Virus record (IMG/VR): IMGVR_UViG_2654587756_000001
Strand: one strand, 5' to 3'
Source: a virus
DNA: 49,306 nucleotides
The position numbers and the translations under genes were made by a program. Below, in pieces: positions 16,815-20,993 of this stretch. The notes under the pieces are model-generated. The model saw nothing but the letters and a program-made list of their open reading frames with translations. It searched no databases and was not told where the DNA came from. The number at the start of each line of letters is the position of its first letter. Within the stretch, counting starts at the first letter, position 1.

Positions 16815-17447
16815 ATGACAGATACAATTGTTTTATTGGAAGAAAGAAAGGAGATTACTACCTTCTTATTGGATGATGGAGTTAAAACATTAGTCGATAA
16901 TGTAGTAACTGCATCAGGTAGTAGTCTTGGATATGAATATTCCAATAAGTGTGTAGTTGATGATATACTTTGTATTTCAGACAAATCTGCAATAGGAAAA
17001 GAAAGTTTAAGAAAATACACCGGAAACGATACTGAAGTTCCTGTAGGCGTACTTGTCAATGAACCAGTTGTAATGACGGCTGGGGAGAGAAAAGGAAGCG
17101 TACTTCTCTTAGGCGGACTTTACAGATTAAAACTAGCTTCAGGTATTGTTAATGTTAAAGCAGGAGACAGAATAAAATTGTCTCCAAATGGAGCAATTGT
17201 TGATAATGCGGGTGAGTTTCTGGCATTTCATCCTGTTGCAAATTCGGATGAATATAAATATGTCAATTGTTTCCAAGTCAGTCTTGGAGGTAAAGGAGAG
17301 AAAGGAGACACCGGAGATACAGGCGCTGCTACTGTCATACTCGGGTCTTATAATACTTTCGAAGAATTAATAGCAGCACATCCAACTGCCAATGAAGGAG
17401 ATGCATTCCTAGTAGATGGAGAACTATTCGTTTGGCATAACGATTAA
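16815..17447 (+). CDS. Capsid decoration paralogue fused to short collagen and truncated fibre module
   Basis: First ~155 aa clearly homologous to 32888; then [13 protein letters not shown] and ILGSYNTFEELIAAHP..GDAFLVDGELFVW. Confidence 0.75.
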   Translation: MTDTIVLLEERKEITTFLLDDGVKTLVDNVVTASGSSLGYEYSNKCVVDDILCISDKSAIGKESLRKYTGNDTEVPVGVLVNEPVVMTAGERKGSVLLLGGLYRLKLASGIVNVKAGDRIKLSPNGAIVDNAGEFLAFHPVANSDEYKYVNCFQVSLGGKGEKGDTGDTGAATVILGSYNTFEELIAAHPTANEGDAFLVDGELFVWHND

Positions 17448-17483
17448 AAAAATTAACTAAAATAAAATAGAGGTGTTTAATAC

Positions 17484-18356
17484 ATGACATGGACAAGTGT
17501 AGGTACAATCAAAGGACCAAAAGGAGATACTGGAGATAAAGGAGACACTGGTGATACAGGTAAAGCGTTCGAATATTCTGACTTTACACCAGAACAATTA
17601 GCAGGATTAACTGGTGATAAAGGAGATAAAGGTGACAAAGGTGACACCGGAGATGTAGGTGCTACAGGAGCTACTGGTGCAACAGGTGAAAAAGGAGATA
17701 CCGGAGCTACTGGTGCAACAGGTGATAAAGGTGAGACAGGTGATAAAGGAGCTACTGGTGATACTGGTGCAACAGGTGCTACAGGAGACACTGGTGATCC
17801 ATTCAGCATTTACAAAACTTACGCATCCATTGCAGCAATGGAAGCAGATACAGCTAATGTTCCAGAAGGAATGTTTGTAGCAATCCAATCCAATGTTGAA
17901 GATCCAGACAACGCAAAATTATACTTAAAAGGAGCCAGTGAATTCACTTTCGTAACCGATATGTCAGGTGCAACAGGTCTTAAAGGAGACACTGGTGCTA
18001 AAGGTGATACTGGAGCAACCGGGGCTACTGGCGAAACTGGTGCAAAAGGAGAAACTGGGGATACAGGAGCTACTGGCGCTACTGGAGAAAAAGGTGACAC
18101 AGGACAAACTGGAGATACTGGTGCTAAAGGTGATACAGGTAACACCGGAGACAAAGGTGACACAGGAGCTAAAGGTGATACGGGAGATACTGGTGCAAAA
18201 GGTGATACGGGGGATACCGGTGAAATGGGTCCTCAAGGATACAGCACTATTATCAAAGGAAGTTATGCAAGTTATGCTGACTTAATCAATGAACATCCAA
18301 CAGGCACAACTGGTGACGCATATCTTGTAAACGGTGAACTATACGTTTACCAATAA
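17484..18356 (+). CDS. Collagen-like fibre protein
   Basis: Long GDK/GDT/GAT triplet runs, an internal globular domain, and a C-terminal GSYASY...[13 protein letters not shown] module. Confidence 0.9.
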
Positions 18357-18381
18357 AAAATAATTCCATAAAATCCCTAAT

Positions 18382-18426
18382 AATAGGAAGTACTCGCTAT
18401 TAACAGTAGTACTTCCTATTTTTTTT
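18382..18426 (+). terminator. Perfect 13-bp hairpin followed by a T-run
   Basis: aataggaagtact-(13 nt)-agtacttcctatt-tttttt. Confidence 0.65.
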
Positions 18427-18450
18427 AAAAAAATTTCAAAGGTGAAAAAA

Positions 18451-18669
18451 ATGTCATGGATAAATGTAGGAAGAGTAAAAGGAGACACTGGAGCTAAAGG
18501 AGATACCGGTGCAACAGGTCCCGTTAATCTAGTTTCAACATTGAATACAAGTGACACAACAAATGCAGTTACTAACAGTGCAATAGCTACAGCAATTCAG
18601 GATGTTACAAATCAGATAGGAACAATAACCGCAGCACAAAGTGCCAATTTAACATTACTTGGGAGCTGA
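18451..18669 (+). CDS. Small collagen-containing adaptor-like protein
   Basis: [23 protein letters not shown] followed by a helical tail; AGGTGA RBS. Confidence 0.75.
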   Translation: MSWINVGRVKGDTGAKGDTGATGPVNLVSTLNTSDTTNAVTNSAIATAIQDVTNQIGTITAAQSANLTLLGS

Positions 18670-18674
18670 TTAAC

Positions 18675-19778
18675 ATGCCATTCACTCCACCAGACCTTTC
18701 AGAAATTCTAACAAATGAACAAGAATTAAATACAAAACTAAATTCCTGTAAAAGTGAATTACAAAGTATATTAACAAAGGAAGGGATTGACTATACTTCA
18801 TCTGAAGGCATTATTCCATTAATCAGGAAACTACCATACCCAACTCCAACAACAATAGAATTATTTGGAACAAAAGAATTTTTAACTAAAGATGGTTCTC
18901 AAACATATAATCGAAGTATGGATTTACGTCCAATTGTTAGAGATCAAAATGGTAAGTCCATGATGAATCTTTCAGTAACAATAAGAAGAAGATCAGGAAC
19001 CACATCAGGCGCATGGACAACTTTAGGCACAATAACAACCGGCCAAAGCTTAAACGTAACTCCACAATCAAACAACGGAAATTATAGATATGAAGCATAT
19101 GTCACCAATAACAGCAATGTTTCAATACATTACGATGTTCCAAATTATTACATGTATTATCCAGCCAAATATGGTCAAATTTTAGCAAGTGTTGTAGATT
19201 ATGCAAATCCGATGGAATACAGCAATTGTAGAATAAATACCGAAGACTTCTCAATGGGCGGGAATTTTATAGACCTTCATGCCCAAAGTGCAGGACAAAT
19301 GTATGCAATATTCCCATTAAAATATTATCCGCCATTAACTCATGTTGATACAAACACAAACATACAGATAGGATTTGATATAACCAGAGGAAATGTTCCG
19401 GTTTCAACAAAAGCCATAGGTATTGGTGGAGGAATGTATAATCCAGAAGATTCATATGGCGGATCACTAGGATTGTTTCTGGATGCATCAGATGGTGATA
19501 CATTAACTTCAAGAGATACATTTTTTATTCCACAATGGTCAACAGATAAGGGTTTTACAGAAAGTGGAGTAAGTAAAGAATGTTATATTCAAATTAACGG
19601 AACTTATAATGGAGGTTATGCATATATGTACGGAGAAGGAGGAGATCCATCAGATTATATGCCCTATTGGTATGGTGAATCTATAGGAACACCTGTCGTT
19701 ATGGCATATGCAAATAATGTCTCAGCAAATGAAAAAGTCAGATTAAAAATAAAATATATCAGAGCAGTTACACCCTGA
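18675..19778 (+). CDS. Putative fibre tip/adhesin-like virion protein
   Basis: N-terminal helical module, then beta-rich Y/G/T-rich domains; inside the fibre block. Confidence 0.45.
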   Translation: MPFTPPDLSEILTNEQELNTKLNSCKSELQSILTKEGIDYTSSEGIIPLIRKLPYPTPTTIELFGTKEFLTKDGSQTYNRSMDLRPIVRDQNGKSMMNLSVTIRRRSGTTSGAWTTLGTITTGQSLNVTPQSNNGNYRYEAYVTNNSNVSIHYDVPNYYMYYPAKYGQILASVVDYANPMEYSNCRINTEDFSMGGNFIDLHAQSAGQMYAIFPLKYYPPLTHVDTNTNIQIGFDITRGNVPVSTKAIGIGGGMYNPEDSYGGSLGLFLDASDGDTLTSRDTFFIPQWSTDKGFTESGVSKECYIQINGTYNGGYAYMYGEGGDPSDYMPYWYGESIGTPVVMAYANNVSANEKVRLKIKYIRAVTP

Positions 19779-19790
19779 GGTGATTAATTA

Positions 19791-19934
19791 ATGAGTATTG
19801 CAAGTAATGTTATAGAAGAGAATAACAGATTAACACTGGCTAGGTCATTATTAAGGGAAAAATTAACTCTCAATAATATTCATTATGAAGATTCAGATAC
19901 AATTTTTGAATTAATAGCCAGATGGCCAAAATAG
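19791..19934 (+). CDS. Small helical protein (47 aa, not in ORF track), similar to N-terminus of 18675
   Basis: LLREKLTLNNIHYEDSDTIFELIARWP vs ELQSILTKEGIDYTSSEGIIPLIRKLP; GAGGTGA RBS. Confidence 0.6.
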   Translation: MSIASNVIEENNRLTLARSLLREKLTLNNIHYEDSDTIFELIARWPK

Positions 19935-19937
19935 TTT

Positions 19938-20993
19938 ATGGAGAATAAGGACATGCCAAATACAACAGAATGGATAGAAATAGGAAAAGTCCAAGGGGAT
20001 ACTGGACCTAAAGGAGATACCGGAGATATAGGTATTGGAACTGTAATAAAAGGGCACTATGATACATATGAACAATTTATGGAGGTCCACCCGTCAGGTA
20101 GGCTGGGAGATGCTTACATAGTCGATGGTAGCTATTATTATTGGAATGAAACCGGATGGGCTAACGCAGGCTCAATTAAAGGAGAAAAAGGAGACACTGG
20201 TGATAAAGGTGCTAAAGGCGATACTGGTGAGAAAGGCAGTAAAGGAGATAAAGGTGATACTGGAGAAACTGGACAAAAGGGAGAACAGGGACCCAAAGGC
20301 GATACTGGAGATACAGGAGCTACTGGAGCTACAGGGCAGGCTGGGCCAAAAGGGGACACTGGAGCTACTGGTGCTAGTCTTACTATTAAAGGTTCGTATA
20401 ATTCTTATGAGGAATTAATAGCTGAACATCCAATAGGTAATGATGGTGACAGCTATTTAGTTAATGGGTCTCTTTATGTTTGGAATGTTGATGCTTGGGA
20501 AAATGTAGGAAGCATTAAAGGAGATACCGGCGATGTTGGGCCTAAAGGTGATACTGGAAATGCTGGACCGCAAGGTGTTAAAGGTGATACCGGAGATACT
20601 GGGGCTACAGGAGCAACAGGATCTAAAGGTGATACTGGTCAAGGTAGTGATGAGGAAGCTGGATGGAAATTGCCAGTCGATGAAATAAGAACAAATAACA
20701 CATTACCGACAGGTGTTAGTGCAGGTTATCGTGTAGCTATTGTTACAAGTTCTATCATGGCCATTAAGGAATATAATGGAAGTTCCTGGGATACTGAATC
20801 TCTTGATTCATATTCAGTAATACCATTGAAACATTCAGGAAGTATACAAATGTATTTGGCAAAAGATACAGGTCCAGTATATATGGGCGTTGAATATGGT
20901 GTATTCGGTAAATTCCGATTCATGACACAAGCAGCATATGATGCATTAGGTAGCTATGATAATGATACAATTTATTTTGTAAGAAGTTCATAA
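19938..20993 (+). CDS. Collagen-like fibre protein with two intact fibre modules
   Basis: G-X-Y runs separated by two GxYxxYEE...GDxYxVxGxxYxW...WxNxGSIKG modules; C-terminal TQAAYDAL...TIYFV. Confidence 0.9.

Follow-up and report, generated by a model that had tools for sequence, protein, structure and literature searches.

A collagen-flanking fibre module divided between consecutive genes: a candidate plug-and-socket joint in a segmented archaeal provirus fibre

Introduction

In chaperone-usher pili each subunit lacks its last β-strand and receives it from the N-terminal extension of the subunit that follows, so that chains form head to tail, and related strand-donation fibres are found among type V pili, TasA and archaeal threads. 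In the engineered SpyTag/SpyCatcher pair the last strand of a small domain is made as a separate peptide, which docks into the remainder of the domain and becomes covalently bound. Among viral fibres, the long tail fibre of phage T4 is described as segmented, in the order gp34-gp35-gp36-gp37 (PMC5537660), and gp12 of the Bacillus phage SPP1 as a collagen-like capsid decoration spike (PMC7602432). Here we describe a fibre locus (genes A to F) in a 49,306-nucleotide stretch of viral DNA, IMG/VR record IMGVR_UViG_2654587756_000001, which was analysed at its full length and is termed the window below. A small module that lies intact between collagen stretches in gene F is divided at the A/B and B/C boundaries, such that the upstream protein ends with three of its strands and the downstream protein begins with the fourth. 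A preliminary description, made from the sequence alone, had proposed that these separate polypeptides join by completing one another's β-structure; the shared break point, the ribosome-binding sites, selection on both halves, collinearity with single-chain relatives and recurrence in phages lend support to that proposal, and we consider it probable that a non-covalent plug-and-socket joint links the A, B and C proteins head to tail.

Results

The module and the position of the cut

The module comprises ~48 conserved residues between collagen stretches, as defined by an alignment of 16 intact and eight half copies. An AlphaFold model of the intact module (mean predicted local distance difference test score (pLDDT) 84) runs in the order β1-helix-β2-β3-β4, with β1 at residues 11-15 of the 56-residue query, the helix at 18-24, β2 at 33-36, β3 at 39-44 and β4 at 47-53, the last paired with β3 as a hairpin. 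These modelled strand positions place the gene cut within the two- to four-residue turn of the β3-β4 hairpin. As the preliminary description had stated, gene F holds the module intact twice, genes A and B halt right after the penultimate strand (3 and 1 residues past β3, respectively), and the missing strand opens the next genes, B and C; a plug-like strand also lies near the N-terminus of F (Table 1). The combination that defines a split joint is thus present, with an upstream gene that ends after β3, a following gene that starts with β4 and collagen, and an intact module in relatives.

The closest solved fold to the module model was 7chu_A, the N-terminal domain of the trimeric Geobacillus virus E2 tailspike (Z 6.0, root-mean-square deviation (rmsd) 2.2, 49 residues), and the collagen XVIII and XV trimerisation domains matched with Z 4.7 and rmsd 2.7-3.0 over 46-48 residues. 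Modest as they are, these matches are compatible with a trimerising knot that adjoins a triple helix, and by this modelled resemblance the module is presumably trimeric. No Pfam model matched the module, and searches of PDB sequences with the module, whether by single sequence or by profile, returned nothing meaningful. The module falls in the PHROG tail-fibre families 3904, 35286 and 15437, and tblastn found it intact in 47 phage records, including Felixounavirus-like, Pseudomonas jumbo, Bifidobacterium and crAss-like phages.

Conservation of the cut

We assign the window to a tailed provirus whose host belongs to the Methanobacteriales, probably to the genus Methanobrevibacter; searches of the genus yielded 15 loci that span junction 1 (A/B) and most of junction 2 (B/C). 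All 31 distinct C-terminal half modules in loci of the genus end 1-3 residues past β3, at the same turn, and each is followed within 2-95 nucleotides (nt) by a gene that starts with β4, whereas 16 of 16 distinct intact copies sit inside F-type proteins. The same-turn cut is maintained in at least 15 species of the genus. Among motif-defined copies in the genus loci no other break point was seen and none ran into unrelated sequence, for a motif search that demanded a complete β2-β3 hairpin and would let a cut within that hairpin escape detection. The socket tail of 1-3 residues, together with the Met and one further residue of the next protein, approximates the four-residue turn of the intact copies.

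Across 13 loci the ratio of nonsynonymous to synonymous polymorphism (pN/pS) was 0.07 in the socket, as against 0.32 in the plug, at pS 0.35-0.46, and the Trp, Gly, Ile and Gly of the plug were invariant. By these measures both halves are under purifying selection, in the manner of functioning genes and not of fragments.

The order of the genes is also that of the parts of single polypeptides in relatives. Sister proviruses encode the anchor domain, collagen and a C-type end as one chain of 318-380 residues; in the homologue P0001 an intact module connects the anchor with the tip domain of F, and the homologue P0002 is an anchor-to-tip chain with B-like elements between. A, B and C follow this order and only A carries the anchor; the three proteins would accordingly make up a single fibre, arranged as their genes are and jointed by the module, and we regard this collinearity as the strongest indirect argument for a single A-B-C fibre.

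Junctions between the genes

A separate ribosome-binding site precedes every downstream gene, in keeping with the preliminary description. At junction 1 the Shine-Dalgarno sequence GAGGTG (17470-17475) lies 8 nt before the ATG of B, and the four in-frame TAA codons that had been reported there comprise the stop of A itself (17445-17447) and three in the spacer. Gene A was assigned the ATG at 16815, with an alternative GTG upstream at 16806. At junction 2 the frame changes and a hairpin is present, as had been noted; the hairpin is of 11 bp (18384-18394/18408-18418) and is followed by T8 (18419-18426). A terminator scan missed it because of its 13-nt loop, and folding confirmed it. The Shine-Dalgarno sequence AGGTG (18440-18444) then precedes the true start of C, ATG 18451, and a GTG at 18442 was rejected as a start as it overlaps the ribosome-binding site. 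A Shine-Dalgarno sequence stands 6-9 nt ahead of each ATG. The hairpin is conserved with compensatory inner-stem changes and followed by T7-T9 in alignment and folding of 13 relatives, and it is absent from two relatives in which junction 2 measures only 25 and 8 nt.

Soon after the stop of B, the sequence ATCCCT (18373-18378) can pair with the Shine-Dalgarno sequence of C (18440-18445), and it is kept in 12 of 13 relatives. Together, ATCCCT, the hairpin and the T-run could attenuate the downstream genes or, as an anti-Shine-Dalgarno element, couple translation of C to that of B.

In a deeper lineage (L049, L052 and L053; A ~55-60% identical) only the A/B cut is present, with a gap of 2-3 nt, and the last two Glu codons of the socket are at the same time the ribosome-binding site of the next gene (865-876 in L049). 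The acidic socket tails, with two or three Glu before the stop, are encoded here by GAGGAA, which also serves as ribosome-binding site for a plug gene that begins 2-3 nt downstream, a solution common to this archaeal virus lineage and a high-GC phage contig (IMG/VR L073).

Proposed assembly of the fibre

In the arrangement we propose, the module sits between the collagen triple helices of a segmented archaeal provirus fibre. A, B and C would be translated separately and trimerise through their collagen and module parts; the upstream protein would end as a three-strand socket, and the downstream protein would present Met and one small residue, then the β4 plug, leading straight into its own collagen helix. 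After trimerisation the sockets of A would be filled by the plugs of B, and the sockets of B by the plugs of C, so that non-covalent strand complementation would hold A, B and C together as a single long fibre; the N-terminal domain of A would anchor this fibre and D would continue it. From the sequences we infer both that the halves bind each other and where the fibre sits on the virion. A covalent bond between the halves is unlikely because the key lysine can be replaced by Gln or Arg.

Several observations weigh against a joint of this kind. A single-chain model of the A end, the translated spacer (TAA read as Gly) and the B N-terminus placed B residues 1-8 as a strand, although with a pLDDT of ~55 at the plug and from an alignment that held intact modules, so that the placement is not independent. 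The module model resembles trimerisation domains only modestly (Z 4.7-6.0, 6-16% identity), and the RNA evidence considered below comes from metagenome contigs that possibly contain DNA. Plug-like N-termini also occur without an upstream socket gene (F in the window; IMG/VR L063 and L067), and the plug strand may serve some purpose by itself, such as capping or nucleating the collagen helix.

The case of F bears on how the plugs are paired. In relatives the F plug always comes right after an E-type gene (293-372 residues) with a socket-like C-terminus, and it is because E is reduced in the window to a 47-residue remnant that three plugs face two sockets here. The preliminary description had counted two acceptors and three donors, with B able to polymerise with itself and fibres of variable length and tip; that scheme is not supported, since the natural partner gene of F is deleted here and the pairs differ. 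The E/F boundary may be a third kind of split junction whose socket side was lost from the window. E-type relatives (L020:7943-9061, L061:7526-8572 and L023:11092-12153) end hairpin-like with ...EPW and 2-3 further residues, after which the plug-like start of F follows.

Alternative explanations

A different account of the same pieces would make the three-strand piece a self-sufficient trimerisation cap and the N-terminal strand a collagen starter, with A, B and C forming separate fibres or attached in some other way and their adjacency reflecting the shared ancestry of the pieces. The orphan plug-like N-termini of F, L063 and L067 suit that account, but 31 of 31 socket-ending genes directly precede a plug-starting gene, the two pieces sum exactly to one intact module with a loop of normal length, A-B-C is collinear with the single chains of sister proviruses, and an anchor confined to A would leave B and C without evident attachment; on balance we find this account improbable. 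About as improbable, in our judgement, is a system of promiscuous sockets and plugs, in which B self-polymerises and C or F caps either socket to give variable length and tip. B does carry both a plug and a socket, the window does hold three plug-like N-termini and two sockets, and the hairpin and T-run after B could lower the expression of C-F relative to A-B. Against promiscuity, the plug of F follows in relatives a gene with a socket-like end of its own; F-type plugs also occur in proviruses in which no gene ending in the present half module was found and in which an E-type gene stands upstream of F; and single-chain relatives are fixed in length. Furthermore, A/B pairs combine an F/F/W socket with a W-x-S-V-G plug and B/C pairs a Y/Y/Y-or-F socket with a W-x-N-V-G plug, and these correlated differences in sequence hint at specific rather than promiscuous pairing. 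A wider form of the idea, a partly promiscuous connector set in which B adds to itself, orphan plugs such as that of F cap A or B sockets to give several fibre lengths and tips, and the unit is exchangeable across archaeal viruses and phages, strikes us as speculative and rather doubtful.

Two explanations would dispense with a joint between proteins altogether, and both appear very improbable. Recoding or RNA processing (readthrough, frameshifting, ribosome hopping or splicing of the spacer) would yield one polypeptide, and junction 1 is indeed in frame in the first five genomes (36, 24, 27, 33 and 21 nt), which had suggested in-frame readthrough. The 15 loci add the frame-breaking lengths 35, 28, 31, 32 and 22 nt, so that spacers fall in all three frames with 1-4 stops, and readthrough was rejected on these grounds, in agreement with the preliminary description; up to four consecutive ochre codons stand at junction 1, the frame of junction 2 varies among relatives and its hairpin is terminator-like, and each downstream gene keeps a Shine-Dalgarno sequence and ATG. 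RNA-library contigs that bridge junction 1 retain the spacer, and a single 88-nt skip at junction 2 in such contigs keeps the stop of B and resembles the hairpin-less relatives; these contigs do not cover the whole locus, with most of 18320-18900 among the missing parts, and the gaps have no bearing on expression. Splicing is unlikely because the frames vary and the RNA-library contigs keep the spacer, although no search was aimed at bulge-helix-bulge introns; the junctions thus appear neither spliced nor read through. Gene decay, in which one fibre gene was broken by mutation and the pieces are pseudogene fragments, draws on the existence of single-chain homologues and on the truncated remnant of gene E. 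The preliminary description had taken fused homologues with variable break points as the mark of decay, and fused homologues do exist, yet the break points are invariant: the identical point recurs across unrelated phage contigs as well as in 15 or more species of the genus, and no other was seen among the motif-defined copies. Decay also sits poorly with pN/pS of 0.07 and 0.32 at a pS of ~0.4 and with start signals that are conserved and optimised, including Glu codons that double as a Shine-Dalgarno sequence. We therefore favour the non-covalent A-B-C joint.

Occurrence beyond the genus

The closest phage record, 'Caudoviricetes sp. vir323' (circular, 34 kb, listed host Methanobacteriales), shares the A/B/C arrangement. 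In IMG/VR, two pattern scans for genes starting with Met-x-Trp, the plug pattern and collagen returned at least 134 instances in at least 118 loci. For 66 of the 134, among the matches listed (51 loci, at least 42 distinct pairs, GC 0.36-0.75), a collagen gene upstream ends in a matching hairpin, GDxYxDxxxGxxYxx, with the upstream gene ending -222 to +4 nt from the plug ATG and mostly -15 to +4; as a C-terminal pattern this hairpin has a background of 1.3-2% of open reading frames (ORFs) in those loci, true cases included. At least ten IMG/VR contigs carry two successive cuts that bound link proteins of 70-100 residues. A profile search of 1.84 billion representatives gave 1643 matches in which the module is usually intact; the best 150 of these 1643 hold ~235 module copies, and the genuine C-terminal halves among them are of the methanogen-virus types only. 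P0049 was rejected as an independent split case as its gene runs off the contig end, and P0118 (69 residues, plug and socket) was set aside since it lies on a 597-bp contig that may be an assembly chimera. Judged from these sequence patterns, splitting of the module appears to be a general means by which viruses assemble modular fibres.

Organization of the fibre locus and the window

Table 1. Coordinates of the fibre genes, their module parts, the junction spacers and landmark genes in the window.
Feature	Position	Strand	Description
Gene A	16815..17447	+	N-terminal anchor (~160 residues), short collagen stretch, C-terminal half module
Gene A half module (socket, β1-helix-β2-β3)	~17325-17444		Ends 3 residues past the β3 aromatic residue (...FVWHND*)
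Junction 1 spacer	17448..17483	+	36 nt, in frame
Gene B	17484..18356	+	Plug strand, collagen, small globular insert, collagen, second C-terminal half module
Gene B plug strand	17484-17516		N-terminus MTW..IKG, directly into collagen
Gene B half module (socket)	~18240-18353		Stops 1 residue past β3 (...YVYQ*)
Junction 2 spacer	18357..18450	+	94 nt, +1 frame change
Gene C	18451..18669	+	Plug strand, short collagen stretch, C-terminal segment ending ...LLGS
Gene C plug strand	18451-18483		N-terminus MSW..VKG
Gene D	18675..19778	+	Separate protein, always after the ...LLGS end, A-B-C split or not
Gene E	19791..19934	+	47-residue N-terminal remnant; full protein 293-372 residues in relatives
Gene F	19938..20993	+	Plug-like strand, two intact modules between collagen stretches, C-terminal phage tail tip domain
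Gene F plug-like strand	19968-19997		Near N-terminus
Gene F intact modules	~20040-20183 and ~20379-20522
Integrase	1-1128
MCM helicase	3837-5807
HK97-like capsid gene	34326-35258
Pseudomurein endoisopeptidase (Pei)	36865-37683
Large terminase	41654-43072

The collagen family PF01391 was matched by B (92.8 bits) and F (56 bits) above its cut-off of 27.2, and A and C have short Gly-X-Y runs only, with scores under the threshold. F, whose likely start is ATG 19953, matches the phage tail tip domain PF24243 at residues 325-349 (43.5 bits, cut-off 23.7; a 26-residue profile). The ...LLGS segment of C also terminates the single-chain fibres of sister proviruses. D gave no family match in Pfam, NCBIfam or PHROGs and probably makes up the distal portion, or the tip, of this fibre. 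The boundary between the ...LLGS stop and D (18669-18690; D starts M-x-F-T/N/A-P-P-D/N) is kept even where A-B-C is one chain, and a helical C end facing a helical D N-terminus may make a different kind of joint.

The anchor domain of A, absent from B and C, has paralogues in the window at 14491-15267 and at 32888-33367, the latter a protein of 159 residues that precedes the two capsid genes. No Pfam match to the anchor was obtained even at E 10, and neither the anchor nor the 258-residue paralogue had a family in Pfam, NCBIfam or PHROGs. The language-model neighbours of the anchor lie in clusters with PF09956 and PF22758 (cement/decoration; scores 0.95-0.96), and this lead, together with gene position, points tentatively to a fibre anchored on a capsid decoration protein. 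A glycosyltransferase-like gene with weak Pfam matches (16210-16809) overlaps the start of A and is found at that place in every relative; either the fibre or the anchor may carry glycans.

The window forms part of a complete 2.54-Mb genome, a homologue in a protein collection carries the source name Methanobrevibacter sp., and the DNA of the window is present in bovine and other gut metagenomes. A 10-kb island (21416-31506), mostly on the minus strand and mostly of low GC (~0.22-0.27, with one 2-kb stretch at 0.34), separates the fibre module from the head module; it holds unknown-family proteins of 517 and 491 residues, two ORFs of 237 residues each and a C5 cytosine methylase (25659-26669), whereas vir323 carries no more than a methyltransferase and a few small genes at this position. 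The island may be defence or anti-defence cargo. The adjoining genes 33379-34317 and 34326-35258 encode ~310 residues each, and the capsid profile is matched by the second alone; both counterparts in vir323 are annotated as HK97-fold major head proteins. An HNH endonuclease gene with zinc ribbons (43111-44364, minus strand) adjoins the large terminase on the opposite strand.

Discussion

If the halves do bind, many viruses would assemble long collagen-like fibres from separate segments by cutting one small domain at a turn. This would account for the strings of short 'minor tail' and 'hypothetical' genes in fibre loci that resemble fragments or pseudogenes, and would give a rule, useful for host-range studies of phages in laboratory strains, that predicts which fibre proteins connect and in what order. 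Protein engineers would gain a split tag of natural origin that suits trimers, and the joint provides a concrete model of an adhesion fibre for the little-studied viruses of methanogens. No published description of a split fibre module was found in the full-text literature, a search that did not cover many subscription journals and is therefore weak evidence of absence; the MSTV1 paper mentions neither fibres nor collagen.

The nearest counterparts by sequence are the single-chain collagen-like tail fibres of phages (PHROG 3904, 35286 and 15437), with F and P0001 of the same kind, which share the sequence family, the position between collagen stretches and the predicted fold. Those fibres are one chain, whereas here and in at least 42 distinct IMG/VR junctions the β3-β4 turn is a gene boundary. 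By fold, the collagen XV and XVIII trimerisation domains (3n3f, 3hsh) and 7chu are, like the module, ~50 residues of strands and a short helix beside trimeric rods, but they are single-chain domains without a known split form. SPP1 gp12 offers a collagen-like trimer shown from a capsid-binding protein, to which the cement/decoration-like anchor of A may be compared as a lead; gp12 is, however, a single short protein without a split module.

The likeness to chaperone-usher pili drawn in the preliminary description stands for the principle and not for the structures. B and C begin, at the level of sequence, with exactly the missing β4, and by analogy strand donation would be shared by both systems. 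The pilin fold is Ig-like, whereas the module is a small α/β knot of ~48 residues that is not; pili are made of monomers, whereas the units here would be trimeric and collagen-flanked, in an ordered A-B-C series and not a homopolymer, and their assembly appears to be cytoplasmic. Pfam scans of the larger ORFs of the window revealed no chaperone or usher gene, and the host is archaeal with a pseudomurein wall, as the Pei gene indicates. SpyTag/SpyCatcher differs in its covalent bond, for here the key lysine is replaceable.

The T4 long tail fibre resembles the proposed fibre in that successive genes encode successive trimeric segments joined non-covalently end to end, although it has no collagen and no sequence relation to the present locus. 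No T4 joint is known to consist of the two halves of a domain found intact in other proteins. Segmented phage fibres and strand donation are both familiar, and a joint obtained by splitting a collagen-flanking knot that other proteins contain whole appears to be a new variation on them.

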